DNA of 64,000 nucleotides from the NCBI GenBank assembly GCA_031425655.1, contig JANPJS010000193.1:1-64000 (forward strand), written 5' to 3'. Origin of the DNA: Abditibacteriaceae bacterium (GTDB taxonomy: Bacteria > Armatimonadota > Abditibacteriia > Abditibacteriales > Abditibacteriaceae). The notes beneath the pieces are model-generated. The model was not told where the DNA came from. It worked only from the letters and a program-made list of their open reading frames with translations, and ran no database searches. Made by a program: the position numbers and the translations under genes. Positions 10,598 to 58,408 of the stretch are shown here, one piece after another (the stretch's first letter is position 1; each line of letters begins with the position of its first letter).

Positions 10598-10630
10598 AAC
10601 TTGTCACAACCGCAATTGAAATAACAAGTT
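10598..10630 (-). repeat. Dispersed 33-bp site, copy 1
   Basis: Reverse complement: AACTTGTTATTT caattgcg GTTGTGACAAGTT. Confidence 0.75.
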
Positions 10631-10655
10631 CAAGGGCCAAAGAACTCGAAAATCT

Positions 10656-12560
10656 CTACACGCCGCGATGGTAGACCCACCATTCGATGGCGAGTAGGGC
10701 AAGAGCGGCTAAAGTGATCAGACCCCATAATTCACGATTGGCGCGAGCCGAGTTTTCGGCGACCAATGGTTTGCCTTCCTGCAATTGCAGCGTGGCGCCG
10801 GGTTGAATATCGCTTTCCGATTTACTAAGCAGGCTCACGGCAAAGGGTTTTCGCCATGCGCTGCCTTTGGCCCCGGCAGTGTAAATGCCGACGCGGTCGG
10901 CGCCGGAATAAAGCGCGGTTCCGCCTTTGACATCCAGGGTTTGCGACGATTTATCGGGCGAGGTGACGGTGATCTGCGAAATTCCCTGCGGCGGGGCCAG
11001 CGGAATCATGCTTCCGGGGCGTTGTGACACGCCTTCGGAGGAGCTACGTCCCTCGGCCAGCCAATGCACCGCGTTGTGGATAAAGATAGGAAAAGCCACG
11101 CGCAACGGTAAATCGGTTTCGCGGATGTCGAAGCCGCACCAAACCACGCGGCGCGTGCCGGTATTGAGAAGTTTCTCGCCCGCCACGACCAGAGGCGTGC
11201 GTTCCGCTTCGACAAGAGGCACGCCCCATCCTTTCAGCGTGACGGCTTTCGAGCGCGAGAAACGCACATCGCCCCACGGCTCGTAGCGCGTTACGGGATG
11301 CTTTTTGTCCCAGTCGGCAACGCCGGGCGAGACCGCTTCGCCCGTCACGGTGACCGGCGCCAAATCAGTGGTCGTAACGAATAAAAGTTGATTTGTATCG
11401 GGTAATTTGGCTGGAGCCACGTCGTCAAGCACGATGACATCGTATTTTTCCGAGGCTTTACCGGCGTCGAAATCAGCTTTGCTGGCGCGAAATAGCTTGA
11501 CGAAAGGGTCAATGTTGAGAGCGCGTTCCAAGAACGACATTTGTGTATCTTCGGAAACCAGCAGCACGCTCAAATTCTGCGGCGGCTCCAAATCGGCGAA
11601 GGCGGCGTTATCGGCGAGCAAGGAATCGCTTTCGTCGAAGCGCGCTTGAAACAAGCCCTGCTGAAACGGCAGATTTTCAAAAACGTGCGATTTTTGGCCG
11701 CTATCGGGCTGTTTTCGGTCATAAGCGGCCAATTGAAGCGGCTCAACCGCGATTAAATTGTTGTCGCGCAGCAGTTCGAGATTGACGCTGCGCGGACGAT
11801 TGGAGAAGTTGCGAATATTGACGAAAATCTGATTATTAGCGCGTGCGGAATAATCGCGGCGCACATCCATGGCCGTGATCGCCACATTGTCGGAGCCTTT
11901 GCCGACTTTTACGAATTGCAGACCGACCGCGCCCGTATTTAAGTCGGAAAGCGGCGGCACAGCGCCATCGCTGTAAAGGTAAATTTGCCCGGCGCCTCGT
12001 CCTGCTGCGGCTTTCTGAGTGCGCAGCAGCGAGGCCGCCAGCACGATGCCTTCGCGCAAATTGCTGCTCGTATCCTGCGTGCGCGCACGCGCTAAAGCGC
12101 GTTTGAGCGCACCTTTATCAGCGGTTAGAGGCGCTAAAACGCGCGTTTGGGCACCGCATTCAATAATGGTGGCGCGGTCGCCGGTCGCCATGCCGTTGAG
12201 CAGTTTTTCGGCTTGGCTGCGGGCGTTGGCAAAGCGCGTTGGCTTAACATCGGTGGCCGCCATGGAAGCCGACGCGTCAAGGACAATCGCTATGGTTTGG
12301 CCGCTGGTGGCCAGCATTTTTATAGCGGGACGCGCCAAAGCGATGGCGGCCAGCACTAAAAACGCGACTTGCAGCCACATCAGCAGCGAGGAGCGCAGCT
12401 TTTGCCACGGCGCGTTCGCCTGCAAATCGCGCAGTGCCGATTGCCAGAGCAAAGTCGAGGAAACTACGCGCTCTTTGCGCTTGAGCCGCAAAATGTAGAG
12501 CAGCACAATCGCGCCGGTGAGGCCGAGAAACAGCAAGTTAAGAGGGGCGATAAGGCTCAT
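10656..12560 (-). CDS. BatA/VWA domain membrane protein
   Basis: N-terminal BatA double-TM (LLYILRLKRK...LARP); MIDAS DASASM; C-terminal LAIEWW. Confidence 0.85.
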   Translation of the reverse strand: MSLIAPLNLLFLGLTGAIVLLYILRLKRKERVVSSTLLWQSALRDLQANAPWQKLRSSLLMWLQVAFLVLAAIALARPAIKMLATSGQTIAIVLDASASMAATDVKPTRFANARSQAEKLLNGMATGDRATIIECGAQTRVLAPLTADKGALKRALARARTQDTSSNLREGIVLAASLLRTQKAAAGRGAGQIYLYSDGAVPPLSDLNTGAVGLQFVKVGKGSDNVAITAMDVRRDYSARANNQIFVNIRNFSNRPRSVNLELLRDNNLIAVEPLQLAAYDRKQPDSGQKSHVFENLPFQQGLFQARFDESDSLLADNAAFADLEPPQNLSVLLVSEDTQMSFLERALNIDPFVKLFRASKADFDAGKASEKYDVIVLDDVAPAKLPDTNQLLFVTTTDLAPVTVTGEAVSPGVADWDKKHPVTRYEPWGDVRFSRSKAVTLKGWGVPLVEAERTPLVVAGEKLLNTGTRRVVWCGFDIRETDLPLRVAFPIFIHNAVHWLAEGRSSSEGVSQRPGSMIPLAPPQGISQITVTSPDKSSQTLDVKGGTALYSGADRVGIYTAGAKGSAWRKPFAVSLLSKSESDIQPGATLQLQEGKPLVAENSARANRELWGLITLAALALLAIEWWVYHRGV

Positions 12561-12564
12561 GGAA

Positions 12565-13437
12565 TTATTTCACCACGCCGGTGCCGCGCAAAAGGCGCGT
12601 GACGACCGTTTCCACCGGCGTATCATTGGCAACAAGCAGATAATTCATGCCATAGCGCAGGCAAAAAGCGCGCAGACCGGACGTGTGGTTATCCAAGTTG
12701 CGCTTGTAAATCCGCAACAATGAATCCGTGACCGACACTTCTTTAAAAGTGCCGGTTTCCGCGTCTACCAGCTTGAAATCGCCACGAACATCCGGCTCTA
12801 ACTCGTGACGGTCAAGCAGTTGAATTGCCGTGACCTCAAAGCCGCGCGCCGCCAGCGTTTTGAGACCGGCTTCGTAGCCTTCGGGATAAAGAAAATCGGA
12901 AATCACGAAAATTACGCCGCTGCGCCGCGCCTGCGTGGCGACACGTTTGGCTGTGGCGCCCAAATCCGCCGCGCCTGCCGCTTCCTGCTTTTCAAGGAAC
13001 TTGAAGAATCCCCCGATGCCGCCGCGCCCGCGCGTGGGCGGAAACCAGCCGCGAATGCTCTGGTCGAAAATCGCCGCACCGACGCGGTCATAATTCGCCA
13101 AACCGATATAACCAACCGCCCCGGCGATTTCCAAACTGGCGCGCAGCTTCGTCGGAGTGCCGAAATTCATCGAAAGACTGGCGTCAATCAGAATCGTAAT
13201 GTCCAGGTCTTCTTCTTCGAGAAACATCTTCAGATACAATTTCTCGAAGCGACCATAAGCGTTCCAGTCAATACGCCGCAGGTCGTCGCCGCTGTTATAA
13301 GCGCGAAAATCAGCGAATTCGACTGACGAGCCACGCTTTGTCGAGCGTTTCTCGCCTTTTGAGGAGCCGGTAAACGCGCGCTTGGCTTGCAGAGAAAGCG
13401 CGTCGAGTTTCTTGAGAAGCTGCGGAGTAAGAAGCAT
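12565..13437 (-). CDS. DUF58 domain protein
   Basis: GSSVEFADFRAYNSGDDLRRIDWNAYGR signature. Confidence 0.9.
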   Translation of the reverse strand: MLLTPQLLKKLDALSLQAKRAFTGSSKGEKRSTKRGSSVEFADFRAYNSGDDLRRIDWNAYGRFEKLYLKMFLEEEDLDITILIDASLSMNFGTPTKLRASLEIAGAVGYIGLANYDRVGAAIFDQSIRGWFPPTRGRGGIGGFFKFLEKQEAAGAADLGATAKRVATQARRSGVIFVISDFLYPEGYEAGLKTLAARGFEVTAIQLLDRHELEPDVRGDFKLVDAETGTFKEVSVTDSLLRIYKRNLDNHTSGLRAFCLRYGMNYLLVANDTPVETVVTRLLRGTGVVK

Positions 13438-14516: not shown

Positions 14517-14549
14517 CTTCTGGGCCGATGAGGATTGCATCGGCCATGC

Positions 14550-14621
14550 GGCGCTATCGTCTATCGGTTAGGACACGACCCTTTCAAGGTCGAGAGACGG
14601 GTTCGACTCCCGTTAGCGCTA
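14550..14621 (+). tRNA. tRNA-Glu (TTC), CCA not encoded
   Basis: Acceptor GGCGCTA/TAGCGCT, anticodon arm CGACC-CTTTCAA-GGTCG, T arm ACGGG-TTCGACT-CCCGT. Confidence 0.95.
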
Positions 14622-15740: not shown

Positions 15741-15776
15741 TTATCTATCACTGATGAATTATCTATCACTGATGAA
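15741..15776. repeat. 18-bp tandem duplication
   Basis: ttatctatcactgatgaa x2. Confidence 0.8.
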
Positions 15777-15808: not shown

Positions 15809-16801
15809 TTAACTTGTCACAACTGAATTTGAACTATCAAATTCAGAAGGAGAATTAAAATTCACAGCCAATAAAGCACCGGGCAAACTGGATAACCACG
15901 TCGTTACTTGCCAGAGCAACGACCAAGCTACAATAATCGCGGCAGGCTCGGCGTGGCCTAACACCGATACGGCTGCGACTTCACGCACTCCCAAGCCGCC
16001 GATGCCGATGGGCACCATGCTAATCAAGGCTAAAAGCGGCACCAGCCACAGAAAAACCGCATTTGCAGTGTGTAATCCGACCGCGCGAGCCAAGAAAATC
16101 TGAAGCGCCACCTGCGCGCCTTGAAATAATAACGATACGAGAAATGCCATGACTAAAGCGGATCGGCTTTCGCGCCGCGCATAGAAATCCAATTCACGAA
16201 AAACCGAGGCCGCTTTGCTTATCGCACGCGCAAAACGCCGCGCCGACGGCTCCAAACGGTAAATCGCAGCGCGCAGGGCACAAAAAGCGGCGCCAACACC
16301 AACTAAAACGCCGATAACACGCGGCAAAACGGCGGGGCCAAGCGTTGATGTTTCCGAACCCCAAAGCGCGATGCCGGTCACGCCAATCGTTAGCAGCGCG
16401 GCCAAGCCGGTAAGGCGTTCGACCAAGATGGAAGAAAGCGCCGCCGGGACTCCGCCACAGCGTGGCGCGGCGGCGATGGCGCGCATCGCATCGCCGCCGA
16501 TAGTCGTCGGCATCCACAGATTCCAAAACATACCTAATAAATAAAGCCGCGCACATTCGACGAAGGAAAATTGTGCGCCGCGTGCGCGCAATAAAAGACG
16601 CCATTTCGCGGCGCTCAGACATTGCGTGAGCCAGTAGAACAGCACAGAAAGCAGAGGAACATACCACGGCACGGCACGCAAAGCATCGCGGAGCTTATAG
16701 ACATCGCCACGGGTTACGAGCACGCCTAAAACGAACAAGCCGAGGCCCAAACGCAGCAGCCACTTGCGCCGGGCTTTCAGTGCCGCAAAGAGTGAAGTCA
16801 T
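15809..16801 (-). CDS. Lysylphosphatidylglycerol-synthase-TM (UPF0104) flippase-like protein
   Basis: KWRLLL, PTTIGGDAMR, PIGIGGLGVRE motifs; multiple TM segments. Confidence 0.85.
   Translation of the reverse strand: MTSLFAALKARRKWLLRLGLGLFVLGVLVTRGDVYKLRDALRAVPWYVPLLSVLFYWLTQCLSAAKWRLLLRARGAQFSFVECARLYLLGMFWNLWMPTTIGGDAMRAIAAAPRCGGVPAALSSILVERLTGLAALLTIGVTGIALWGSETSTLGPAVLPRVIGVLVGVGAAFCALRAAIYRLEPSARRFARAISKAASVFRELDFYARRESRSALVMAFLVSLLFQGAQVALQIFLARAVGLHTANAVFLWLVPLLALISMVPIGIGGLGVREVAAVSVLGHAEPAAIIVAWSLLWQVTTWLSSLPGALLAVNFNSPSEFDSSNSVVTS
15811..15843 (-). repeat. Dispersed 33-bp site, copy 2 (overlaps the stop codon of 15809-16801)
   Basis: Reverse complement: AATTTGATAGTT caaattca GTTGTGACAAGTT. 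Confidence 0.75.
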
Positions 16802-18558
16802 GGCTGAGGCGGCAAACCGGCGGATGGATCGGTGTCGAGTCGGGCTTTTTTCGGTGCCGTGAAATCGTAGCGAAAGTCGCGCGGCGCCGGACGATTGGAA
16901 AGGAGCTTGAAATCGTTGTTGCGCGCCCAGGTAAAGGCGCCCGGTGGCACGCGATAATCTTTGCGGCGCCAGCGCGTGAGGATGAAAATCCGCTCGCGTC
17001 GCTGGAATAGCCAGGTGAGATCGTGTGATTGGTTTCGCGGAAAAAACGGCGATTTTGCCAGAGCAACGGCGTTTAAACCGGACGTATTGTTGAAGTTCGG
17101 CAGCATTACGGGGCGCTGAAGATAGAAAATCTGCGTCGGCGAAAACGAGCTGACCTGCGCTACAATGTCATCGGCTTGCAATTGCGGGCGCAAGGCGATG
17201 AACATCCGGGTCGAATCCTCATAATAGGCCGCGCGGCCTGCGAGAGCGAGAACACAAACGTAGAGTAGGGCAGCCATGCAAAATTGCGTGACAGCGGTTT
17301 TCCACAATTGTTCCGCTTTCCAGAAGCGAACGATAAAGACGGTGCCTCCGAGCAAAATCAAGGCACAGCAAAGCGCGTAGGGCAAACCGACGGCGCGCGG
17401 CAATGTATTGTTGTCGGTCAGAGAAATTATGGTGGCGATTGCCGCGATTATATATAGCGCGACCAATGCTCCCGTTACTCGGCGGCGCGTCAGCGGTGCG
17501 GCGCGCAAAATCCCATCTGCGGCCAGCAACGCTAAAGCGGGATAGGCCGGAAGAATGTAGGAAAACAGCTTGGTGCTGGAGTTCGAGAAAAACAGGATGA
17601 TAATTCCGGCCCACAGCCACAAAAACAAGCGATTGGCGCGGCGCGTGGCGTCTTGGTCATGAGAACGAGCCAACGCGGACAACGCCAGAGGCGTCCACGG
17701 CAGTAAACCCAGCAGCGTAACCGGCAAGTAATACCAGATGGGCGAAGGCTTGTGATGCTCGACAGAACCGGAGAATCGCGCCAAATTTTCGGTAAAAATG
17801 AAATTTTTGGTAAAACCCGGCTGCCGCTGCTCAATAGCGAAAAACCACGGGGCCGAAATCGCCGCCGCGATGAGAAAAGCGGCCAGCACGCCGGGCCAGC
17901 GCAGGCGATTCCACAGTCGCGTGCGCCACAAATAGAGAAGACCGATGAGCAACGGAAGAGCAACGCCGACCGGGCCTTTGGCGAGCATGGCTAAGCCCAT
18001 TCCGATGCCGGCAATGGCATAAGGCCGCCACGACGCGCCTTCGCGCACTGCGAACCACAAGCCGTAAAGCACGATGGTCATGGTCGCGCTGAGCAGCATA
18101 TCCGTATTCAGCGTGCGGCCCAGTGAGACGGGAAATATCGAACTCGCCCACACCAGCGCCGCGATGATGCCGGTTTTCTCATCGAACATGGCGCGGCCCA
18201 ATTGGAACACCAGCCACAGCACGAGGACGGCGGCTATGGCCGAACCGAGCCGCCCGGCCCAATCGTGAACGCCGAATATTTTGAAAAACGTGCCGGCCAG
18301 CCAATAAACCAGCGGCGGCTTGTTGAGGCGCGGAATCGTGTTGAGATGCGGCACGACCCAATCGGGCTGCGAGCCTTCCACGCCGCCGATCATTTCCAGT
18401 GACGACGCGGCATAGCGGCCTTCGTCGGGATTCCAGTAAGGCGCATAGTTAAGCCAACCCGCCAGCAAAAGCGCGCCCGCTAAGAGCCACCAACGGGGAG
18501 AATATCGAGACACGGAGTGAGGAGACACGGAGTGAGGAGAGTCAACGAGCCGTCGCAT
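16798..18558 (-). CDS. ArnT-like lipid A/phospholipid glycosyltransferase (GT39/PMT_2)
   Basis: WNPDEGRYA, PRLNKPPLVYW, LAKGPVG, KLFSYILPAYPALALL; exact start uncertain. Confidence 0.85.
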   Translation of the reverse strand: MRRLVDSPHSVSPHSVSRYSPRWWLLAGALLLAGWLNYAPYWNPDEGRYAASSLEMIGGVEGSQPDWVVPHLNTIPRLNKPPLVYWLAGTFFKIFGVHDWAGRLGSAIAAVLVLWLVFQLGRAMFDEKTGIIAALVWASSIFPVSLGRTLNTDMLLSATMTIVLYGLWFAVREGASWRPYAIAGIGMGLAMLAKGPVGVALPLLIGLLYLWRTRLWNRLRWPGVLAAFLIAAAISAPWFFAIEQRQPGFTKNFIFTENLARFSGSVEHHKPSPIWYYLPVTLLGLLPWTPLALSALARSHDQDATRRANRLFLWLWAGIIILFFSNSSTKLFSYILPAYPALALLAADGILRAAPLTRRRVTGALVALYIIAAIATIISLTDNNTLPRAVGLPYALCCALILLGGTVFIVRFWKAEQLWKTAVTQFCMAALLYVCVLALAGRAAYYEDSTRMFIALRPQLQADDIVAQVSSFSPTQIFYLQRPVMLPNFNNTSGLNAVALAKSPFFPRNQSHDLTWLFQRRERIFILTRWRRKDYRVPPGAFTWARNNDFKLLSNRPAPRDFRYDFTAPKKARLDTDPSAGLPPQP

Positions 18559-18934
18559 TTTGGTGAAGGAGCCACTTTGGAGCGTTATTGATCATGGAAA
18601 CAATCATGCGAAGTATTTGCTCGTATTCGTTCAGCAGTTGTTGACCGCTATCAGAGGCGAGATAACCGCAGCGCATGGCGAACTCGATCCATGTCTGAGT
18701 TTCTGCTGCTTCGGTTTCCGCATCGGAGAGTTTGGCTATAAAAGCGGCTTCATAGCGGCGCTTTCGCCATGCTTCGGTAACATTAGCCGCCACCGAGCGA
18801 GACGAACGACGCATTTGATCTGTGAGTGAATACAGTTCCTCTCTGGGAAAACTCTTTGTCAGTTGAAAAACGCGCATGGCAGCCTCGAACGACCTCTTAA
18901 AAACATCCAAATCCCGATGACTGGTAATAGTCAT
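18542..18934 (-). CDS. Four-helix-bundle protein (23S rRNA IVP-like)
   Basis: HRDLDVF, FPREELYSLTDQMRRSSRSVAANVTEAW, EAAETQTW. Confidence 0.9.
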   Translation of the reverse strand: MTITSHRDLDVFKRSFEAAMRVFQLTKSFPREELYSLTDQMRRSSRSVAANVTEAWRKRRYEAAFIAKLSDAETEAAETQTWIEFAMRCGYLASDSGQQLLNEYEQILRMIVSMINNAPKWLLHQNATAR

Positions 18935-18964
18935 CGTTCGTCTCCGTGTCTCGCGTCTCCGCAC

Positions 18965-19814: not shown

Positions 19815-21887
19815 CTAATTTTTCGCCAGCTTGACTTTGCTGTTGTCGCCAATCGGTGGGCTGCCGATGACGATGCGGTCGCCGCGCGAAACGCCGCCTA
19901 AAATCTGCGTTTGTTCGCCGATAGTAATGCCGGTCTTGACATTGAAGGCTTTGATGTGGGCGCGATTTCCCGATTCGGGCACGGCCACATAAACGCTACG
20001 GGCGCCATCTTCGGCGGCGCGCACGGAGTCGGCGGGCACGATCATGGTGTTGGTGAAAACTTGCGTGGTGATGGTGCCGCGCGCGAAGGCGCCAGCCGGC
20101 AATTCGCTGGGCGGACGCGGAATCGAAATGCGCACGCGGAACTGGCGCGAACGCGCATCGGCTGAGGGAATAATATCGGTGACGGTCGCGTCAATCGGCT
20201 CTTTCGCTACTGCGGGAATCGAAACCCGCGCACTCTGGCCTCGGCGCAGTTGTTGAATTTCGGTTTCGGAAACCAAAGCTTCAAAATAAACTTCGTCCAA
20301 CGCCACGAGGTTCATAATCGGTTGCGTCGGCGACACGGTTTGCCCGACATCCGCTAATTTCTGGCTGACCACGCCGTTGACCGGCGAGAAAATCTGCGCG
20401 TTGGCCAAGTTAATTTGCGTTTGCTTTAATTGCGCCTGCGCCGATTGCACGGCGGCTTGTGCGGCCTGCACGTCCTGACGCGCCAAAGGCACCTGCGAAC
20501 GATTGGCGATGGCCTGCGTGAGCGCGGCTCGCGCCTGATTGACGGCTTCGAGCGCCACGCGCGATTCCTGAAGCGTAATGGGAATTTGCAGGCGTTGCGA
20601 GCGCGCCGCTTCCACAGCGCCGCGTGCTTGCTGCACGGCTTCGCCCGCCGCGCGGGTTTCCTGTGCCGAGACGCCGATGATGGACAAATTGGATTCCGCC
20701 GCGCGCTGATTTTCCTGCGCTTGCTGCAAAGCCGCCAATGCTGTCGTGACTTCGCCCTGCGCGATGGGAACACGAAGCCGCCCGGACTGCGATGTGGCCA
20801 GTCCAGCTTCGGCCTGCCGCACGGCTTCCTGCGCTTGCCGGACTTGCTCGGTCGTAGCGCCTTCCTTAACTAAGGAAAGGTTTTGTTGCGCCGCTTGCAC
20901 TTGCGCTCTGGCGACTTCAAAATTCGTTTGCGCTAAATCCACGTTTTGGCGCGGCGCGGCGCCGCCTTCGAAAAGAATCTTGGCGCGATTAAGTTCGGTT
21001 TCGCTGCTGCGAAGCTGCGCTTCGGCCAGATTGACCTGCGCTTGCGCCGCCGCGATTTGCTGGGCACGGGCGCCGCGTTGCACTTCGGCCAAAGCCGCGC
21101 GCGAGGCTTCCACGCCCGATTGCGAGCGTTTAATATCGGCTTCGACTTGCTGTTGTGTTTGCTCCGCCGTCTGGCGCGCTTGTTCGATGCGCGCTTGCGC
21201 GGTTTTTACGACTTCTTTGGCATTGGCAAGCTGCGTTTGCGCGCCGGTTACCTTCGACGGCTCGCTAAGTTGCGCTTGACGCAAACGCGCTTGCGCTTGC
21301 TGATAAGCCGCTTCGGCTTGTTGAATCGCGGTTTCGACGGTGCGAACTTTCAAAGGCTCGCTGAGCAAGGCTTCCTGATAGCGGGCTTTGGCGCTGTCGA
21401 GAGCGGTTTGCGCTTGCTCGATGCTGGTTCCCACTTGCTGAATGCGCGCGGGCAGGCCGGTTTGCGTTTGTGCGAGGCGAACTTCGGCGGTGCGAACTCC
21501 GGCGCGAGCCGCGTCTACTTGAGCGCGCAAATCGTCGTCGTCGAGCTGCATCAAAAGCTGCCCACGACGCACACGGCTGCCTTCGCGCACTGCCACACGC
21601 TCCACGCGCCCGATGATTTTCGAGCCGAGATTAATGTTCTGATTGCTGCGCAGCGTGCCCGTGACTTCCAAAGTCTGCGTCAGATTGCCCAATCTCACCG
21701 GCACCGTTTTCACGACCGGCACTTCCTCGACTACGGTTTTGCTTTCCGCAGTCTTCGCGGGTGAATTAGCCAACTTAGCCTGCCGCGACTTGAAAAACAA
21801 TCCGCTGCCGACTAAAGCCGCGACTACGACGTAAGGCACCCAGTTTGTTCCTGCTTTGCGTGGAGCACGTAATTCTCCTGTTGCCAT
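19815..21887 (-). CDS. RND efflux periplasmic adaptor (MFP) with very long coiled-coil
   Basis: N-terminal TM, GRVERVAVREGSRVRRGQLL and IFSPVNGVV lipoyl halves separated by an Ala/Gln-rich helical region of roughly 380 aa. Confidence 0.9.
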   Translation of the reverse strand: MATGELRAPRKAGTNWVPYVVVAALVGSGLFFKSRQAKLANSPAKTAESKTVVEEVPVVKTVPVRLGNLTQTLEVTGTLRSNQNINLGSKIIGRVERVAVREGSRVRRGQLLMQLDDDDLRAQVDAARAGVRTAEVRLAQTQTGLPARIQQVGTSIEQAQTALDSAKARYQEALLSEPLKVRTVETAIQQAEAAYQQAQARLRQAQLSEPSKVTGAQTQLANAKEVVKTAQARIEQARQTAEQTQQQVEADIKRSQSGVEASRAALAEVQRGARAQQIAAAQAQVNLAEAQLRSSETELNRAKILFEGGAAPRQNVDLAQTNFEVARAQVQAAQQNLSLVKEGATTEQVRQAQEAVRQAEAGLATSQSGRLRVPIAQGEVTTALAALQQAQENQRAAESNLSIIGVSAQETRAAGEAVQQARGAVEAARSQRLQIPITLQESRVALEAVNQARAALTQAIANRSQVPLARQDVQAAQAAVQSAQAQLKQTQINLANAQIFSPVNGVVSQKLADVGQTVSPTQPIMNLVALDEVYFEALVSETEIQQLRRGQSARVSIPAVAKEPIDATVTDIIPSADARSRQFRVRISIPRPPSELPAGAFARGTITTQVFTNTMIVPADSVRAAEDGARSVYVAVPESGNRAHIKAFNVKTGITIGEQTQILGGVSRGDRIVIGSPPIGDNSKVKLAKN

Positions 21888-28267: not shown

Positions 28268-28515
28268 ATCTTATCTCAAATACACAGTAGAGAAGTTGTG
28301 TAAAGTTGGAAGAATTCGAGAGCAAAGTAGGAATGGTTGCTACGCGCAAGAATACAGGTGCAAATTTTAATAATAACAATAGGATAAGTAAATTGAATTT
28401 TTTATTTCATAAAATGAAATTTTTCAATAATACAGAAAATAATTATTTACTGTTGTAATTTTTTCAGGCAAATTAAGTTTTTCACGTAAACTGTGGCATT
28501 AAAGCGGAGTTTTTA

Positions 28516-30189
28516 ATGAGTAACGGCATAATTTTCGTAGTCAATTCGGAAGCTCCCGAAGTTCGTGTTGCTGAGATACGAAACAATCGCCTTTTTGATA
28601 TTGATATAGAGCGTGGCAATCAGGGCTTGGGAAGCATCTACCGTGGCGTCATTTCTAACGTGGTTCCTGGGATGGAAGCTTTTTTCATTGACATCGGGCA
28701 TTCAAAGAAGGGGCTGCTGCACTTCAAAGACTGTATTGAAAGCAAGGAAGAATCTGGTGATTTAAGACTTTTAAATCTGCGCGTTGGCCAATCGCTATTG
28801 GTGCAGGTATCGAAACCGGCGGTCGCTAAAAAAGGGCCACGCTTAACCCAAAGGTTGTCGCTTCCCGGACGTTATCTGGTCCTTATTTCTCCGTGGGACG
28901 CAGTGGGCGTTTCGAGACGGATTGAATCTGAAGTTGAGCGAACAAGACTGAAAAATCTTGGCGAAACTTTTCGTCCGTTGGATTACGGCCTGATCGTGCG
29001 CACGGAAGCCGAAGGCGTCACAGAAGAACTAATTCGCAAAGACGTAGAAGAATTACTTTCCCAAATTGAAGTCATTCAACAGCGCTTTCACGCGGGTTTA
29101 ACCCCGGAGTTGCTTCATCAGGACTTAGGCTTATTGGGAAGGGTCATGCGCGACCGATTCAATGAGGATGTGGATCAAGTCGTGATTGACTCCAAACAGC
29201 AATACGATTTCTGCCGCACTCTGGTAGCGTCGCTATCACCCCATTTAGTGGATCGCATTCAGTATTACGGCAATGAAAAACGGAAGCCGCTCTTTGATTT
29301 CTTCGGCGTAGAACACGTCTTAACGCAGTCACAGCAAAAAGCGGTTTCGCTACCACATGGCGGTTCTATCGTGATCGAAGAGACTGAGGCGCTCACTGCC
29401 ATTGATGTCAATACCGGAAAATTCGTGGGACGCACACGACTCGCCGATACCGTTCTTCAAACTAACTTGGAAGCCGTGGAAGAGGTCGCTCTTCATTTGC
29501 GCTTGCGTGGGATCGGAGGAATTATCGTCGTTGATTTTATAGATATGGAGCGCACTCGTGATCGTATTCGAGTTATGGATGCTTTGGAAGCCGCGCTGAA
29601 GTTGGACCATGTAAAAACGCACATCGTCCAACTTTCACCATCGGGTCTGGTAGAAATTACAAGGCAACGCGAAGGGCTGTCACTGAGGCAGCTTATGAAC
29701 AGTCCTTGCCCTAAATGTCACGGAGAAGGCGTCTTGAAAACGCCGGAAACTGCCGCAATTCAGGCTCGTCGCCAATTGCGGCAATTAGCATTAGAACATC
29801 CAGGCCGCTTCTTCAAAGTTCGCCTAAATCCTGCGACCGCATTCCATTTTGTTGGCAGCTCGGCACAACAAATAATGCAGTTTGAGGACGCGATAAAAAC
29901 TCAAATCACAGTGAGGGTGGACTCGCAAATGAATTTTGAATCCACTCAAATAGAGATTTTAAACTCGGCCTGGGAACCTGAACGCAGCTTAGCCAGATTT
30001 ACGCTGGGAATGCATGACCAGCTCTTTCCACCAATTGCTCCGGAATTCGCGGTTTGGAACGATCTTTTAGTTTTACTTCCGGTTGAAATATCTGGCGATG
30101 AGCAACAATCGCAACTTCAGCAGGTCGTGGTGCTTGAAATCCGGTCAATTGAACGCTGGTATGCGACTTCTGCGTTATTGCGACCCTGA
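28516..30189 (+). CDS. rng: Rne/Rng family ribonuclease (RNase G-like)
   Basis: S1 domain, TEALTAIDVNTGKFVG, GGIIVVDFIDM, CPKCHGEG. Confidence 0.88.
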   Translation: MSNGIIFVVNSEAPEVRVAEIRNNRLFDIDIERGNQGLGSIYRGVISNVVPGMEAFFIDIGHSKKGLLHFKDCIESKEESGDLRLLNLRVGQSLLVQVSKPAVAKKGPRLTQRLSLPGRYLVLISPWDAVGVSRRIESEVERTRLKNLGETFRPLDYGLIVRTEAEGVTEELIRKDVEELLSQIEVIQQRFHAGLTPELLHQDLGLLGRVMRDRFNEDVDQVVIDSKQQYDFCRTLVASLSPHLVDRIQYYGNEKRKPLFDFFGVEHVLTQSQQKAVSLPHGGSIVIEETEALTAIDVNTGKFVGRTRLADTVLQTNLEAVEEVALHLRLRGIGGIIVVDFIDMERTRDRIRVMDALEAALKLDHVKTHIVQLSPSGLVEITRQREGLSLRQLMNSPCPKCHGEGVLKTPETAAIQARRQLRQLALEHPGRFFKVRLNPATAFHFVGSSAQQIMQFEDAIKTQITVRVDSQMNFESTQIEILNSAWEPERSLARFTLGMHDQLFPPIAPEFAVWNDLLVLLPVEISGDEQQSQLQQVVVLEIRSIERWYATSALLRP

Positions 30190-30208
30190 TGAGCCAACGA
30201 CCAAAGGT

Positions 30209-31216
30209 TTACGAATTCGCCGAAACATTAATAAAGTTTGAAGGGTTGTTTTTGGCTCTCTCCACAGCTTTGACGTAAAGGCTCGTCGTTTCGATTTTGC
30301 TATGCCCCATAGCATCCCGCACATGTTCGAGCTTGGCGCCGCCGGCTACAGCTAAAGTGCCGAACGTATGGCGCAAAGCATGGCATGAAACCCCCGAACG
30401 CTTCAAAGCAGCGCGACTCAGGTATTTGTCCACGATTTCATTAATGGCCTGACGGCTGATGCGTCCGCCGCGCCCGTGATTTCCGTGTCCCACAAAAATC
30501 GCGCTTTTGATAGGATACCCCGCGTTGAATTTACCGTGCGCATAAGTTTGGAGGCACTCGTAAGTGTCTTCGCGCAAGTAAACACGTCGCTGCTTATCAC
30601 CCTTCCCGATTACGATTAAATAAGCCAGTTCGCCTTCGAGCTGAATGCTTTCGTGATTCAAGCGATGCACTTCGATGCGGCGCAGGCCATGTATGGACAT
30701 CAAGGCAATCAACGCGCGATCTCTCGCACCGGCCAATGTATCGGTTGGAATTTGAGCCAGCAGTGTCGCCAAAGCTTGCTCCGCCAGAAAATGGATCTTT
30801 TCTTCCGGCGCCGTCAAATCCTTGCCGCCTTTCACTCCATCGGCGGGATTGTATTCAATGAGAGCGTATTTCTGTGCGGCGGCATAAAAGCGCCGGATAA
30901 TCGAAAGCTTATGCTTGCGGGTCGCCACGGCCATTCCCAAAGCCTTCAACGCCTGCCGATAGGCCTCGACATCGCCGCGCCGCGCGCGAGCGGGATCAAT
31001 CGAGAATTCGTGGCACCAGCGAACCCAAGCCGCGACTTCGCGCCGGTAACCTGCGACGGTATCGGCTGAAGCATCGCCATTAGCGACATCAATTTGCAGA
31101 AATGCCTCAAACGCATCCAAAATCGCTGTGTCAAGGCCAAAAACCTTGTCATCTAAGACGATTTCTCCATCTAAAATGGTGGGTTCATTTTGAGGTGTTG
31201 GGTTTGCGGTTGCCAT
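30209..31216 (-). CDS. Tyrosine recombinase (Xer/resolvase-like, not IntI)
   Basis: HGLRR, GKGDKQR, HALRH, MGHSKIETTSLY catalytic residues; no evident IntI-specific insertion. Confidence 0.92.
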   Translation of the reverse strand: MATANPTPQNEPTILDGEIVLDDKVFGLDTAILDAFEAFLQIDVANGDASADTVAGYRREVAAWVRWCHEFSIDPARARRGDVEAYRQALKALGMAVATRKHKLSIIRRFYAAAQKYALIEYNPADGVKGGKDLTAPEEKIHFLAEQALATLLAQIPTDTLAGARDRALIALMSIHGLRRIEVHRLNHESIQLEGELAYLIVIGKGDKQRRVYLREDTYECLQTYAHGKFNAGYPIKSAIFVGHGNHGRGGRISRQAINEIVDKYLSRAALKRSGVSCHALRHTFGTLAVAGGAKLEHVRDAMGHSKIETTSLYVKAVERAKNNPSNFINVSANS

Positions 31217-31229: not shown

Positions 31230-31262
31230 AAATTGATAGTTTTTAATCAATTGTGACACGTT
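31230..31262 (+). repeat. Dispersed 33-bp site, copy 3, just upstream of the recombinase RBS
   Basis: AAATTGATAGTT tttaatca ATTGTGACACGTT. Confidence 0.75.
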
Positions 31263-31305
31263 GATTATAACTGAAACGTCGGCTTTTTGTCCAACGAATT
31301 TGGGG

Positions 31306-44474: not shown

Positions 44475-44507
44475 AACCTGATAGTTTTCAAACGATTGTG
44501 ACACGTT
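44475..44507 (+). repeat. Dispersed 33-bp site, copy 4
   Basis: AACCTGATAGTT ttcaaacg ATTGTGACACGTT, 5 bp before the larA ATG. Confidence 0.75.
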
Positions 44508-45797: not shown

Positions 45798-46580
45798 ATG
45801 AATCCAGCGCATTCGACAGAGCAAACCCAATTTGGCGATTTGGCGCCGTTTTACGATGAATTGATGGATGTCGTGCCTTACGACTTCTGGGCCGAATATG
45901 TAATGACCTTGTTCGGTTTCGTGGGCCATAATGCCAGCCGGCTTCTCGACTGCGCCTGCGGCACCGGCAATTTGTCCTTCAAGCTGGCAAAACAAGGTTT
46001 GGATGTGACGGGAGTTGATCTTTCTCCCGAAATGATCGAGCAGGCGCTGGCTAAAGCGCGCGGCATTTATTGCGATTTGAAAGTTGAGTTCGCGCAAGCC
46101 GACCTGACGGATTTTTGTCTCAACAAAGCCTTCGATTCGGCGACGTGCCTTTACGATTCCTTAAATTATATTCTCGATGCGGATAAGCTCCAAAACGCCT
46201 TCGCGCAAGTCGCGGCGCATTTAACTGCCGGCGGCGTCTTCGTGTTCGATTTGAATGCGGTTTATGCCTTTGAAGCGAACTTGTTTTCGCAAAGCAATCG
46301 CAATCCGCGCAAGCAGCTTCACTACGATTGGAAAGCCAACTTCGACAACGAAACGCGCATTTGCACCGTTAAAATGGAGTTCAAGCGCCAATTACGCGAC
46401 GGCTCGGTGCAAATTTTCCACGAAACGCATCGAGAACGCGCTTATACGCGCGAGAAAATCGAAGCGATGCTGCACGCAACCGGCTGGGAATTGCTGCACA
46501 CCTTCGACGCCTACACCTTGAACCGGCCCCACGACCGCTCGGAGCGATGGTTTTTCGTGGCGCGCAAACGCGAGAACTAA
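45798..46580 (+). CDS. Class I SAM-dependent methyltransferase
   Basis: LLDCACGTG, GVDLSPEM, CLYDSLNY. Confidence 0.9.
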   Translation: MNPAHSTEQTQFGDLAPFYDELMDVVPYDFWAEYVMTLFGFVGHNASRLLDCACGTGNLSFKLAKQGLDVTGVDLSPEMIEQALAKARGIYCDLKVEFAQADLTDFCLNKAFDSATCLYDSLNYILDADKLQNAFAQVAAHLTAGGVFVFDLNAVYAFEANLFSQSNRNPRKQLHYDWKANFDNETRICTVKMEFKRQLRDGSVQIFHETHRERAYTREKIEAMLHATGWELLHTFDAYTLNRPHDRSERWFFVARKREN

Positions 46581-46656
46581 GCGTGGGCCTTACAAATCGA
46601 GTGAGAATTTGCATACTGTGAGGAAGTAGGCGTCAAGACCTGCGACAAGGAGACCG

Positions 46657-47565
46657 ATGGAACTCTACCAGTTGAAACTTTTCGTTGACCTTGCAGAAAC
46701 CGGCAATTTCACCAAAGTGGCGGGCGAAAACTATGTCACACAGGCCGCCGTTACGCTGCAAATTCGCAAATTGGAAAGCGAATTGGGCGTTCCCTTGTTT
46801 CATCGCACCACGCGCTCGGTGACGCTGGTGGAAGCCGGGCAAAAACTGCTTCCTTACGCCCGTCTCATGCTGCAACAAGCCGAAGAAGCCAAAATGGCGG
46901 TGCGCGACACCCGCGAAGAAGTTTCTGGCTTTGTGCGCGTCGCGGCGGTGCATTCCATCGGACTTTACGAGCTTCCGCCTTACATCAAGAAGTTCCTGAA
47001 AAAGTATCCGGGCGTGAATTTGCGCATCGAATATCGCACTTCAGAAGAGATTTACCGGCTGCTACACGACGGGGATATTGATGTGGGCTTAGTCGCCTAC
47101 CCGACCGAAATGCCGCGCGTGGAAAACATCCCGTTTATGAAAGACAGCCTGGCGATTTTCTGTCCGAAAGAGCATCCTTTCGCCAACAAGAAATTCGTGG
47201 CCATCAGCGAACTTCAAGGCCAGCCTTTCGTGCAATTCGGCGAAGAAACACCGACGCGCAAAGCCACCGATGAACTGCTCCTCGAACACGATTTAACCGT
47301 TAGCGTGCGCATGGAATGCGACAATATCGAGATTCTCAAGCAAATGATCGAGGTCGGCTTCGGTATCGGACTTTTGCCGAAAAAAGCCCTCACATCGGCA
47401 GATCGCGCCGCCGGTTTAGTGGCGGTGCCGATTAAAGACGCCGTGATCGAGCGGCCCATCAGCTTGCTGCTCTTGAAAAACACGCCGCGATTCAAAGCCA
47501 TGCGCGCGTTTGTTACGACCTTGATCGGCAGTCGCAAAAAAGAAGAAGCCGACGAAAACGGCTAA
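46657..47565 (+). CDS. LysR family transcriptional regulator
   Basis: N-terminal HTH TQAAVTLQIRKLESELGVPLFHR. Confidence 0.93.
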   Translation: MELYQLKLFVDLAETGNFTKVAGENYVTQAAVTLQIRKLESELGVPLFHRTTRSVTLVEAGQKLLPYARLMLQQAEEAKMAVRDTREEVSGFVRVAAVHSIGLYELPPYIKKFLKKYPGVNLRIEYRTSEEIYRLLHDGDIDVGLVAYPTEMPRVENIPFMKDSLAIFCPKEHPFANKKFVAISELQGQPFVQFGEETPTRKATDELLLEHDLTVSVRMECDNIEILKQMIEVGFGIGLLPKKALTSADRAAGLVAVPIKDAVIERPISLLLLKNTPRFKAMRAFVTTLIGSRKKEEADENG

Positions 47566-51709: not shown

Positions 51710-52035
51710 AAGCAAGATTTGCGGCGTTAATTCTGCAAAACCAGCCCCAAGAGGCTTGAAAACAAGGGCCGGAAAATAAAAAAAGACAAGAGGTCGTTTT
51801 ACCCCTTGTCAACATAGTCTCTTGTTGGGCAGCACTGGATTTAACGACGCGAACTGATGCCCAAACGCTGCGCCAACGCCGAAAAGCCGGCGCACCCGAA
51901 AACCAGAACGTATCGCTGGAACCCGCCAAAATGCGGATAAAAGCACGCCGCCGACACGAAAAGCTGAGAAAACGAGGCAAAACGCCGCCGCCAGAAGCCC
52001 AAAAACGCCTCAGATAAAGAAACGTGAGCGTTGCG

Positions 52036-52121
52036 GCCCAACGCTGAATTCACCCGCTGCGGAAGGCGCAGCGAGGAACGAGCGGAGCCTGGAGCAGTCG
52101 CGGTGCAATGTTTGGTTGTGC
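52036..52121 (-). other. attC site (86 bp)
   Basis: GCACAAC caaac ATTGCACC ... GGTGAAT tcagc GTTGGGC. Confidence 0.85.
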
Positions 52122-52144
52122 GGTGGTTGGTCGCTCTTGCCGAC

Positions 52145-52585
52145 TCATAATTTCTTGGGAGCATTGCGCTTCACCGAAATAGTTTCTGAGGTTGTTGCCG
52201 TGATAGAACCATCTGGCCCTGTGACTGTCACTTTCTTCTTGATTTTGAAATCCACAGTTTGCATTTTCTCAAACGCCACAGACGGCCCAAACTCCATAAA
52301 CGTGATGCCTGAATCTGTTTTGCTTGTGAATTTTTGCCCGTCCCAATATATCTCAATATCCGCCTTTGAATTGGAGTTGACCTCAAACGATGTTGATGCA
52401 GTGTGGTTAAAACCAGGTTTAGCGGACTCGATTGTGATCTCAACTTTTTTGACAGCACTGGGTTTGGGAGCTGCTTTGACGGTGGAAGTAGACGTGTTGG
52501 ATTGTTGACAACCAGCCATAAAAAAGCACATGGCAAAAAAGATAGCGAAGGAAGTGGTAATCGAGGTTGTTTTCATTATGTTCAT
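52145..52585 (-). CDS. Cassette-borne lipoprotein of unknown function
   Basis: Lipobox FMAGC; low GC; start 52585 or 52576. Confidence 0.75.
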   Translation of the reverse strand: MNIMKTTSITTSFAIFFAMCFFMAGCQQSNTSTSTVKAAPKPSAVKKVEITIESAKPGFNHTASTSFEVNSNSKADIEIYWDGQKFTSKTDSGITFMEFGPSVAFEKMQTVDFKIKKKVTVTGPDGSITATTSETISVKRNAPKKL

Positions 52586-52633
52586 ATTTATCACAAAGCA
52601 CCGCACATTACGCAACGGCATGCGCCGCCGCAC

Positions 52634-52653
52634 AACTCTTTATTCTGTCGCTG
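52634..52653 (-). other. Truncated attI-like junction in place of an attC
   Basis: CAGCGACAGAAT AAAGA GTT; the 11-bp core is identical to 54602-54612. Confidence 0.7.
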
Positions 52654-52663
52654 TTGGTCGGTA

Positions 52664-53332
52664 TTAAGACTCATTTTCTGAGCTTAAGAAGAGCAATAAA
52701 GCGTTTCGGGCTTTCTCGACACTCGGTAAAGCGGTCGTGATGGCCTCGATTGCCCTGCCTTCCAAGCCGGGCCTTACCATCCCACTATCAGTTGAGAAAA
52801 CCGGTGGTATGGCTTGATTCGCTCGATTGGTTGCGCGATAAGATTCCAGAATATATGCCTTTAGCTCATCGTGCAAGATGGAAATAACTCCTTCTCTTAT
52901 AGCTCTACGAAATTGCTCATCAACGAATAAGCATCCTAAATTTGACTTGTCGCAATGTTGAGCAATGTGGAGATTAAAATCCAATTCATCAATCAAAGCC
53001 TGTAGCGGGCCAACATCTGAATCTCTGGCGACTTCTCTAAAAACTTCCGGTCTCTTCTGACAGATTTCTATCCATTGATCTCGGTGTTTCTTCAATTCTT
53101 CTGGCCGAAACTTTCTGCCCCTGGGATGGTTGATATTGTAGCTATGAATTTCCGCATGACATTCAAAACACACGGGAATAGCGTTGTCAATATCGCCAGA
53201 ACCTTCTTCCCGTCTGGGAACAATGTGGTCAATTTCGAGCTTGACGCCGCAGAAGCGGTGACAAATGCAACAACGGCGATGACATTTAACCAGTAGAGTA
53301 TCAATTTCTTTCGACGAAAAATCAGCAGCCAT
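52664..53332 (-). CDS. Cassette-borne HNH endonuclease domain protein
   Basis: CCIC...EIDHIVPRREEGSGDIDNAIPVCFECH. Confidence 0.88.
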   Translation of the reverse strand: MAADFSSKEIDTLLVKCHRRCCICHRFCGVKLEIDHIVPRREEGSGDIDNAIPVCFECHAEIHSYNINHPRGRKFRPEELKKHRDQWIEICQKRPEVFREVARDSDVGPLQALIDELDFNLHIAQHCDKSNLGCLFVDEQFRRAIREGVISILHDELKAYILESYRATNRANQAIPPVFSTDSGMVRPGLEGRAIEAITTALPSVEKARNALLLFLSSENES

Positions 53333-53377
53333 AATGCTTAAGTATATCTACGATTCACCGTAACGCCGCGCGCAGCG

Positions 53378-53450
53378 ACAGAACGACTGAGTTCACCCGA
53401 CCCGTAAGGAGCCTGCGACTGTAGGGGTCGGGTGCAACGATTTGTTGTGT
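53378..53450 (-). other. attC site (73 bp)
   Basis: ACACAAC aaatc GTTGCACC cgaccc...gggtcg GGTGAAC tcagtc GTTCTGT. Confidence 0.88.
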
Positions 53451-53456
53451 TGCACG

Positions 53457-53783
53457 TTATGAGGTTTGGGTTGGCATGAACGACAAATCAAGCGCACAGT
53501 GCCCAAACGAAATGTTAATTGTGTAGCAAATTCTGCCATGCTTTTTGGCAACGGGTTCGCCTATCGGGAAAGCACTAAACCGATGCTTGATTTTATCTAA
53601 GATGCTTTGCGGCTCCGACGGGAACTCTACCCAAGGCACCGCGATTAAATCAAAATCGCGCGCCATGCTGCCATGCACCGCTAACGCATAGCCATGATTA
53701 ACGAAAATTGTCGCTAATTCAGGATACATCGCCGCCGCGTAAAAGGGCGCAAAATTCGGTTTCACTTCCTCTGCTGTTTTCAT
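53457..53783 (-). CDS. Cassette-borne small protein with nucleotidyltransferase-like GS..DxD motif
   Basis: YALAVHGSMARDFDLIAVPW; GAAGG RBS before ATG 53783. Confidence 0.6.
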   Translation of the reverse strand: MKTAEEVKPNFAPFYAAAMYPELATIFVNHGYALAVHGSMARDFDLIAVPWVEFPSEPQSILDKIKHRFSAFPIGEPVAKKHGRICYTINISFGHCALDLSFMPTQTS

Positions 53784-53815
53784 AGTTTCGCCTTCCGAAA
53801 CGCTGCGCGCGTGCA

Positions 53816-53930
53816 ACACAACGACTAAGCTCACCCGCCGCCCGCCGAATTGCGACCAAGTTTAGCCCAACGCGACCACACTCGAAAACCAGCCAAGCTG
53901 CGGGCGGTCGGGTGCAGCGCCTTGTTCGGC
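53816..53930 (-). other. attC site (115 bp)
   Basis: GCCGAAC aaggc GCTGCACC cgaccgcccgc...gcgggcggcg GGTGAGC ttagtc GTTGTGT. Confidence 0.88.
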
Positions 53931-53943
53931 GGCTTGTTGGTGC

Positions 53944-54558
53944 CTACCACCACCAACTCGCGGTAGTGGCTTGCTCCGCGATTTTCCGTCCTTCTTTATA
54001 TGTGCTGATGACATATGAGACGTTGCCTTTTTCCGACTTTCTATCAACAAAAGTTCCCTCCCATCGTTGGTTATTTTTGTAACTTCCCTGATAGAGAATA
54101 TTTTGCTTTGTGTCCCAACCAATTTCGCTGACAATATTGCCTTTTTCGTAGAGCAACTCACGCATCTTGTTGCCATCTCTCCACTCTAAGTATTTGCCGT
54201 TTAGCAAGCCGCCCACCCAATGCGCCTCACCCGTCTTTGTCCCATTTTCTGCCCAGAACAAAAACAGACCATCTCGCTTGCCATGACGGTATACGCCTTC
54301 ATACCGTTTGGTTCCATCCTCACGGTAGCAGACCATAGGCCCATGCCACACTTCCACCTGAAATTCTGTCCCGTCGGTATCTTTGATGGCTTTGCCGTAA
54401 GCCTGATACACCTCTTTGTTGTAGTTTTGGTAATCGTCAGTCCACACTTTGGTGAACTGGCGGACGCGCTTTCCTTCAAAGTCGCTGCTTTGCGCGAAAA
54501 GCGGGCAAGCAAGGATTAACAAGAGAGCCGGAACCAACAAGGTGATTTTCATTCTCAT
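53944..54558 (-). CDS. Cassette-borne secreted MORN-variant (YwqK-like) repeat protein
   Basis: Signal peptide; HGPMVCYREDGTKRYEGVYRHGKRDG...WAENG repeats. Confidence 0.75.
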   Translation of the reverse strand: MRMKITLLVPALLLILACPLFAQSSDFEGKRVRQFTKVWTDDYQNYNKEVYQAYGKAIKDTDGTEFQVEVWHGPMVCYREDGTKRYEGVYRHGKRDGLFLFWAENGTKTGEAHWVGGLLNGKYLEWRDGNKMRELLYEKGNIVSEIGWDTKQNILYQGSYKNNQRWEGTFVDRKSEKGNVSYVISTYKEGRKIAEQATTASWWW

Positions 54559-54591
54559 ATCGGTGATTATAAGACACAGCCAAGCCGCGCG

Positions 54592-54645
54592 CAAGCCGCC
54601 GAACTCTTTATTATGCCGCAAATTCTTGCTTATCTGCGGTATAAC
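54592..54645 (-). other. attI-like site at the head of the array with a 41-bp mini-cassette
   Basis: GTTATACCGCA-14nt-TGCGGCATAAT AAAGA GTTCGGCGGCTTG. Confidence 0.65.
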
Positions 54646-54759
54646 GCTCATTTCTCTTAGTAAAACCGCTGTTTGGGCATTCGACCGTGGATTTGCGGTC
54701 TATCATCCAAAACCCAGAAAAGAATCGTAACACAGCATAGCCGACCGAAGTGTAGACGG

Positions 54760-54794
54760 GACAAGTGCGACAAGAAATTCTCGTCGCACTTGTC
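54760..54794. terminator. Hairpin directly after the thioredoxin-family gene
   Basis: gacaagtgcgac-11nt-gtcgcacttgtc. Confidence 0.55.
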
Positions 54795-54795
54795 T

Positions 54796-55377: not shown

Positions 55378-55444
55378 GAGTTGTCTCCGTTAAAATGTGA
55401 TGTCGAGGGTTAGTTTATCCCGACTTCGCCCGAACCAAGAAACA

Positions 55445-55530
55445 GCCGCGAAACAGCACAAAACGCACAAAGAAAGCCAAAAAACGGGTTCACCAAAGCT
55501 GTTTCTGTGCCTTTTGCGCGTTTTCGCGGC
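55445..55530. repeat. Imperfect IR of 9-mer repeats
   Basis: gccgcgaaacagcacaaaacgcaca / tgtgccttttgcgcgttttcgcggc. Confidence 0.7.
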
Positions 55531-55537
55531 CATCGCT

Positions 55538-57715: not shown

Positions 57716-57725
57716 AAGCCAAAGT

Positions 57726-58313
57726 TTAACAACTCATGCGACTCGTCATAGCCGCCCATTCCTCCTGCGTGTTTACGTTGATTAAGGTTGCAGCCACTTC
57801 CGGTGGAGCCGGCACGCAAGAGAATTCTCCCGCCCGAATCAGAGCGTGCATCGAGCGCCGCCCCTTGGCTAAATTCGCTTCGATCAGAGGCAGGCACGCG
57901 CGATGATAGATCGAAAACAACGGCTCCCATTGCTCGCCGTTTTCTACGATGACGCCGTGCAAAGCCGAACTCATTCCCCCCTGCTCTATCAGCCAACGTA
58001 GGGCATATGGCGTCAGAAGCGGCAAATCGCAGGCTAAGACTAAAACCGCCTCTTCTTTTCGCAGTGCCGTCTGCAAAGCGCCCAGAGGCCCCAAGCCCGG
58101 CGTTTCGTCCGGCAGAAATTCCGCTTGAGACAAAAGCCAGTTTTCGGGCTGACTGCGCCCCACCACCAAAACGCGAGGCGCCACAACCAGAGCCGTGCGA
58201 ACCGTCCGTTCGAGCAGCGTTGCATCGCCAAAACGCAACTCGGCCTTGTCGTGCCCCATTCGCCTGCTTTCGCCGCCAGCAAAAAGTGCAATAGTTGGGA
58301 AGAAGCTATTCAT
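57726..58313 (-). CDS. mobA: Molybdenum cofactor guanylyltransferase
   Basis: AGGESRRMGHDKA, GPLGAL, LACDLP, EPL, NVNT. Confidence 0.92.
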   Translation of the reverse strand: MNSFFPTIALFAGGESRRMGHDKAELRFGDATLLERTVRTALVVAPRVLVVGRSQPENWLLSQAEFLPDETPGLGPLGALQTALRKEEAVLVLACDLPLLTPYALRWLIEQGGMSSALHGVIVENGEQWEPLFSIYHRACLPLIEANLAKGRRSMHALIRAGEFSCVPAPPEVAATLINVNTQEEWAAMTSRMSC

Positions 58314-58374
58314 GTCAATAAATATGACAAATTAGCGGGATTTCTTCTGCGGATTTTGTCCCTTTTTAACGATT

Positions 58375-58408
58375 AACTTGATATTTACCTGAGAGATTGT
58401 GACAAGTT
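58375..58408 (+). repeat. Dispersed site, copy 5 (34 bp)
   Basis: AACTTGATATTT acctgagag ATTGTGACAAGTT. Confidence 0.72.

Follow-up and report, generated by a model that had tools for sequence, protein, structure and literature searches.

In loxP, the site of Cre, the arms are perfectly inverted and the spacer is fixed; a polar array at the terminus is the layout of Tus-Ter. In the single-recombinase Xer systems XerS/difSL, XerH/difH and XerL/dif, an Xer-like recombinase lies beside an asymmetric terminus site and replaces XerCD (PMC5357621, PMC2965235, PMC2731167, PMC9765430). In the available parts of these sources, a single copy per chromosome is a criterion for dif prediction (PMC2731167), the centre measures 11 bp in difSL and 6–10 bp in difH (PMC5357621), and XerS/difSL functions with the FtsK of an E. 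coli host (PMC2965235). Excerpts of two further papers report that activation in E. coli needs the DNA adjoining the XerD arm (PMC2673442) and that spacer identity governs rearrangement at pdif sites (PMC13141974). Here we analysed the first 64,000 nucleotides of contig JANPJS010000193.1 (C193), referred to as the window, from an Abditibacteriaceae bacterium (GCA_031425655.1; 5.98 Mb; G000). A preliminary description of this DNA had noted five dispersed repeats, one of them abutting a tyrosine recombinase gene. Sequence comparison suggests that these sites form a mirror-image array around the probable replication terminus, likely bound and crossed by the adjacent Xer-like recombinase, which likely took over chromosome unlinking from XerC/XerD. 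The grounds are the sites themselves, their polarity, their terminus position in relatives, the match between recombinase clade and site motif, the loss of XerCD and the endpoints of inversions.

Re-reading the window confirmed the sequences, coordinates and strands of all five repeats. Each site in G000 is made of a left box AACNTGATWKTT, a 9–10-bp centre and a conserved arm TTGTGACAMGTT. Site 1 (10598..10630, minus strand) lies between convergent genes, with a 9-bp centre and its arm pointing outward to the left. Site 2 (15811..15843, minus strand), the innermost on the left, lies inside the 3' end of the open reading frame (ORF) 15809–16801, within its last codons. On the plus strand, site 3 (31230..31262) is the innermost on the right, site 4 (44475..44507) is 5 bp ahead of the start of a LarA-like gene and site 5 (58375..58408) has a 10-bp centre. 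The reported placement at gene boundaries thus stood, as did the 13-bp distance of site 3 from the ATG of the recombinase gene, while the AT-rich/GC-rich transitions described at sites 2 and 3 hold only loosely. The locus resembles Cre/loxP in its tyrosine recombinase fold and similar site length, but its arms are unequal. Symmetry is confined to the outer bases (AACTTG...CAAGTT) of 12-bp boxes that lie 9–10 bp apart, and the centre is different in all six G000 copies, so that the 'loxP-like' geometry first proposed was not borne out. Just outside site 2 we also saw a short tandem duplication, TTATCTATCACTGATGAA present twice at 15744–15776.

The 12-mer TTGTGACAMGTT with at most one mismatch occurred five times in the window, compared with 0.52 expected and a maximum of two across 100 shuffles. 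A two-box position weight matrix (PWM) built from the five window copies gave eight matches at a score of at least 28 in the G000 assembly and none in each of three local shuffles. The sites are therefore commoner than in shuffled sequence. Five matches were on C193, one on C306 (4.7 kb from the contig end) and two on C135, a plasmid-like contig encoding ParA, a DnaB-like helicase, a primase, a serine resolvase and IS1, whose genes have homologues on plasmid-like contigs of relative G021. As the genome-wide matches were confined to C193, the end of C306 and C135, the set is regional, and not 'chromosome-wide' as had been suggested. Gene order in G001 and G002 indicates that C306 probably adjoins C193; no sequence overlap between the two was found. 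A candidate overlap of C193 with C312 was rejected, since its sole match was 42 bp within a repeat of 30 copies. Scanning viral contigs for the site motif returned single matches among the best 80 of 120 loci listed.

Both orientations occur, as described before, but they are not random: the order along the window is −, −, +, +, +. The two left-pointing sites (1 and 2) and the three right-pointing sites (3–5) bracket the recombinase gene, a sixth arm and the switch in polarity of the FtsK-orienting polar sequences (KOPS). The C306 site would also point left, provided that the two contigs join as gene order implies. We scored KOPS as GGGNAGGG; the octamer GGGCAGGG is named as KOPS in the available text of PMC2965235. 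Before 29.2 kb the window holds three plus and one minus octamers, and after 30.6 kb none plus and six minus (Fisher p 0.033, post hoc), with the polarity change in the interval 29136..30607. The cumulative G−C curve peaks inside this interval, at 29,604, in agreement with the KOPS flip. KOPS also converge on the array centre in relatives G012, G004, G009 and G016, and in G004, G009 and G012, where dnaA and the array are on one contig, they lie 49%, 49% and 42% of the contig apart. The array is thus at the replication terminus in these four relatives, and likely surrounds it in G000.

The gene in the centre of the window (30209..31216, minus strand) encodes P0001, an Xer-like tyrosine recombinase of 335 amino acids. 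Its catalytic set (R179, K205, H279, R282, H305, Y314) is invariant or nearly so across a 17-sequence alignment, and both the R-K-H-R-H/W-Y residues and the fold are those of tyrosine recombinases. The closest solved structure by sequence is XerD, and a middling AlphaFold model (pLDDT 70, pTM 0.56) supports the tyrosine recombinase fold only. P0001 scored below the cut-offs of XerC (TIGR02224, 146 against 335 bits), XerD (TIGR02225, 143 against 330), XerS (82 against 267) and XerA (112 against 220), and its match to XerH was weak (E 1.6e-11), poorer than that to XerD. A sigma-70-like promoter match (31264..31293, minus strand; TGGACA-18-TATAAT, 11/12) faces site 3 and, beyond it, the recombinase gene. 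It ends 2 bp outside site 3, which consequently lies between the predicted promoter and the start codon. A site ahead of the recombinase gene was found at the same position in all four genomes of this genus (g1). Promoter scans at site 2 and at the central arm gave chance-level matches only. Genes for SMC and FtsK-gamma are present. A second FtsK-gamma domain, possibly contamination, was seen on the 1.6-kb contig G000:C192, and an integron integrase at G000:C103 4880–5845.

The same layout was found in eight relatives. In the nine genomes together, all of the 44 satellites point outward, in arrays that span 14–48 kb; the nominal p-value overstates this polarity, because each clade's pattern was adjusted once the data had been seen, looser ones give a few wrong-way matches and the genomes are kin. 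Of 27 family genomes, 19 encode a member of the P0001 family, among them all 17 that belong to genera g1 and g2; g2 has two paralogues (A and B). The two-box motif occurs in 4/4 g1 genomes and 0/23 others, the motif TTGTGWDAAGTYCARGT in three genomes and the motif GYATTGTGAGCGAYW in four, one of them with a lone match. For the recombinase tree, 31 of 37 rows were kept (dropped were a long-branch XerC, L125 and four of five non-family outgroup rows). It resolved three supported clades (g1, B1 and B2), each with its own site motif. Motif and recombinase thus co-vary across genomes, a check proposed when the repeats were first noted, and plasmid-like contigs bear their host's version of the motif. 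G006 and G008 encode a family member and have no array under the clade-tuned patterns used.

The arrays differ from single-recombinase Xer systems in copy number, as those carry one site per chromosome in the passages available and the genomes studied here carry three to eight polar satellites. G000 itself, with six satellites and one arm, does not have the single dif copy used for prediction (PMC2731167, in part). P0001 also belongs to a separate family, judged by its XerS score and weak XerH match, and g2 has two paralogues. Central regions longer than 6 bp occur in single-recombinase systems too, and are not disqualifying because difSL has 11 bp and difH 6–10 bp (PMC5357621, in the part available). 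The best reading is a lineage-specific system that would work like single-recombinase Xer/dif, yet it departs from the single-copy rule and P0001 falls outside XerC/D, XerS, XerH and XerA. The literature searched, outside which most subscription papers lie, gave no description of an Abditibacteriota dif or of polar multi-dif arrays.

Eight of the 27 family genomes each contain a single copy of an asymmetric 12-6-12 site with arm TTGTGWMARGT, a reversed-pattern control giving no matches, and a PWM added a further one in G004, at its KOPS switch. The central site of these nine relatives therefore has two arms and a 6-bp centre, and its arm resembles the XerD arm TTATGTTAAAT in the table of PMC13141974, as far as the available part of that paper gives it. 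By the same 12-6-12 measure, the satellites of G000 have 9–10-bp centres and its central site (28276..28307, plus strand) is degenerate. An intact arm TTGTGTAAAGTT remains at 28296–28307, upstream of an RNase E/G gene. The preliminary description did not mention this sixth arm, which lies between the left and right sites and in the same place as the 12-6-12 dif of G002 and G003, also upstream of the RNase E/G gene. The left part of 28276–28307 resembles an eroded arm that follows an ABC gene in G001–G003. The G000 central site could possibly be a hybrid of the intact arm and the eroded ABC-gene arm, and the canonical dif of this genome may have decayed or be unassembled. The locus is like E. 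coli XerCD/dif with FtsK-KOPS in the 12-6-12 central site of relatives, the XerD-like arm, the KOPS convergence, FtsK and the plasmid copies. It is unlike it in the multi-copy polar array, in the degenerate central site and in that G000 has no XerD and only a diverged XerC. At the B1 loci L020–L023 we observed the B1 paralogue directly after the tmRNA gene and, after its stop codon, a 12-6-12 site of its own with inverted arms, 1–5 kb from the asymmetric dif, giving two central sites.

The XerD model at 1e-50 found nothing in G000, G004, G009, G016 and G018, one weak copy in G001–G003 and two in most others. Four relatives have no recognisable XerC/XerD. Only three tyrosine recombinases were found in each of G004, G009 and G016; two are of the P0001 family and none is XerC or XerD. 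One XerC-like gene is kept in each of G000–G003; in G000 (G000:C182 9964–11004) it is the only XerC/D-like gene, with catalytic residues kept and the conserved C-terminal segment gone, and no XerD was found. The recombinase gene thus adjoins a site and canonical XerCD is absent, although g1 retains a diverged XerC and both persist in part of g2. In the control genome G011, which encodes XerC and XerD but lacks the P0001 family, we found a single canonical dif, at 746 kb, and no array within the 140 kb searched.

We compared gene order in g2, where it is otherwise kept, and both inversions between close relatives (two of two) were at opposed sites. One inversion separates G016 from G018 and G009, its ends lying in 824,907–825,238 and 828,591–829,080. 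These intervals hold the innermost opposed sites of G016, at 825,049 and 828,947, whose centres differ at one of six bases (TTGGTA and TTTGTA); the crossover point is beyond resolution at this divergence. Between G004 and G012 there is likewise one inversion, and the intervals of its two ends contain the opposed sites of G012 at 6,917,265 and 6,923,109. Among the 24 satellites of g1, eight gene ends recur beside sites in at least two genomes (22 occurrences), and 8/8 keep their side, in five different pairings of which only one is common to two genomes. Gene ends that keep their side while partners swap are what crossovers inside the sites should produce. The sites do look like tyrosine-recombinase sites tied to the 30209–31216 gene, as first suggested from the sequence. 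Of the recombination or gene-shuffling system proposed then, comparative genomics supports rearrangement at the sites, but not shuffling as a demonstrated purpose.

From these comparisons we infer a mechanism in which binding, catalysis, FtsK activation, dimer resolution and autoregulation would be linked. P0001 would bind both boxes of each site and cleave it. With the XerD-like arm outward, FtsK approaching the terminus on either replichore would meet the arm first, and a crossover between one site's two sister copies could then resolve a chromosome dimer. Unequal centres would protect the essential genes between neighbouring sites from deletion. A rare crossover at two opposed sites would flip the block that they enclose with KOPS polarity preserved, and we propose that occasional inversions of this kind account for the gene-order differences among relatives. 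Site 3 may let the recombinase repress its own gene, if the match at 31264–31293 functions as its promoter. A more far-reaching version, a 'distributed dif', is conceivable and we offer it tentatively. The new Xer family would have displaced XerCD and, in G000, the single dif with its 6-bp centre would have decayed, leaving each outward satellite as an FtsK-activated, spacer-orthogonal resolution site; nested inversions would permute the terminus blocks and could part the recombinase gene from its promoter. A mirror dif-like array with a new Xer family that co-varies with it in three clades and the loss of XerCD would amount to a different terminus design. The array offers a site-specific route to terminus-centred inversions, and its sites would supply a natural set of orthogonal recombination sites. 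The system can be tested in E. coli, as XerS/difSL works there with host FtsK (PMC2965235, in part).

Several observations weigh against this account. Box spacing varies within genomes (8–10 bp) and no two G000 centres agree. Looser patterns return a few wrong-way degenerate matches, the motifs were tuned to clades post hoc and the kin genomes are non-independent. The g2 arrays track paralogue B and not the P0001 orthologue; no clustered arms were found in the four g2 genomes with paralogue A alone, nor in G024. The G000 assembly holds no well-scoring 12-6-12 dif by regular expression or PWM (best score 18.6, compared with 27–39 for the training sites and 28.7 for the unseen G004 site), and the diverged XerC is still encoded. 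The 6-mer strand-bias curve reaches its maximum at 2.2 kb and stays level up to about 16 kb, and so fails to put the terminus at 29 kb; on this curve C306 is strongly leading, and the window is flat over its first 16 kb and lagging beyond. It had been suggested that synteny breakpoints against relatives might coincide with sites. The inversion ends and partner swaps do so, but a simple break test was not significant, with synteny broken at 8/9 site junctions and 61/112 matched site-free ones (p 0.076; 22/189 junctions excluded). Contigs of the probable source run cross sites 1–4 unbroken, and no joint was found at any site among the joints listed there. This check covered contigs, which drop rare variants, so absence of minority isoforms cannot be shown from it; runs X2–X6 contain small shares only and are uninformative. 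Contigs would run unbroken across sites 1–4 if recombination between different sites were blocked by the unequal centres of G000.

The satellites might instead be mainly non-recombining pads for SMC unloading or terminus organisation, with only a central dif resolving dimers and the inversions accidental. In the available parts of two reports, the dif-like XDS sites in ter are where Smc-ScpAB is unloaded by XerD of B. subtilis (PMC11840125, PMC11894783), and the array shares with that system several dif-like sites near the terminus, an Xer protein and SMC. The SMC gene, the g2 satellites that are almost single arms and the variable spacing in g1 fit this idea. The arrays studied here differ, however, in being mirror-polar, two-boxed in g1 and located at inversion endpoints. 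Inversion endpoints and partner swaps at satellites, together with the lack of an intact central dif in G000, argue against pads, and we consider this explanation unlikely, although it can coexist with a terminus array crossed by P0001. The chromosome-organisation motif offered earlier as an alternative was half right, in that the sites surround the probable terminus; they belong with Xer/dif systems. An array resembling a shufflon or pdif modules could also flip terminus blocks within the population and vary expression, for example by parting the recombinase gene from its promoter, which lies outside site 3. Inversions do fall at opposed sites, and opposed sites in G009, G016 and G012 have identical 6-bp centres. 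In G003, two opposed sites (L048, C6 18728–18757; L050, C7 8733–8762) are an identical 30-mer and C6 starts about 35 bp from the C7 site, which hints at an assembly branch from active inversion, with a contig overlap only 90% identical. The available part of PMC13141974 describes Acinetobacter plasmid pdif modules with similar features: multiple dif-like sites, variable spacers, gene modules and opposed-site inversion. Those modules are unlike the array in alternating C/D sites and using XerCD, whereas here the sites are chromosomal and co-oriented on each side, with housekeeping cargo and no XerCD. The blocks carry no surface or defence variants, the G000 centres all differ, no isoform appears among the listed joints of the probable source run, and G009 and G018 share one arrangement despite about 80% DNA identity. 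A programmed switch therefore seems quite improbable.

There is a slight chance that the sites are read by another protein, such as the residual XerC or a polar terminus-binding protein of a fork trap, with the recombinase merely a neighbour. One XerC-like gene is indeed kept in G000–G003, and the arrangement is that of Tus-Ter. Yet arrays persist where XerC/D are absent, the motif changes with the recombinase clade, and a site stands ahead of the recombinase gene in each g1 genome. A transcription-factor regulon or the scar of a miniature inverted-repeat transposable element (MITE) or insertion sequence would account for sites at gene boundaries, one of them abutting a promoter. Orientation is set by position relative to the centre and not by the direction of genes, many sites occupy 3' ends or the space between convergent genes, the set is confined to one region and plasmids, and the interior is not conserved. 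The 44/44 polarity largely excludes such origins, including the MITE scar suggested earlier, and we regard them as scarcely credible.

Some features of the locus and its relatives deserve mention. On C135, host-type sites flank small unknown ORFs at L031 (8712–11384), like pdif modules, and the 12-6-12 site at 10313–10342 has a centre, CGCCCC, that resembles CGCCTA, the centre of the chromosomal dif in g1. On plasmid-like contigs of G021, the helicase homologue also found on C135 likewise has a 12-6-12 site next to it, whose arms are perfectly inverted. In G002:C61 (13597–16681, L079), a 3-kb segment that carries the gene of an unrelated tyrosine recombinase is framed by two diverging sites; it may be a mobile element that inserted at a satellite. 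In the window, the methyltransferase/LysR and HlyD/FAA gene ends, which are site-linked in relatives, meet without a site at 46580–46657 and 19815–19852, the former holding a faint site-like remnant. A four-helix-bundle gene (23S rRNA IVP/bAvd-like) lies between housekeeping genes at 18542–18964, with no reverse transcriptase seen in the window ORF scan. Rfam and ARAGORN scans detected a tRNA-Glu at 14550–14621 and nothing else. Finally, an AT-richer island at 51841–54651 contains an HNH endonuclease gene (52664–53332) surrounded by small unknown ORFs, and inside that gene an arm-like 12-mer lies in the wrong-way orientation at 52944–52955.

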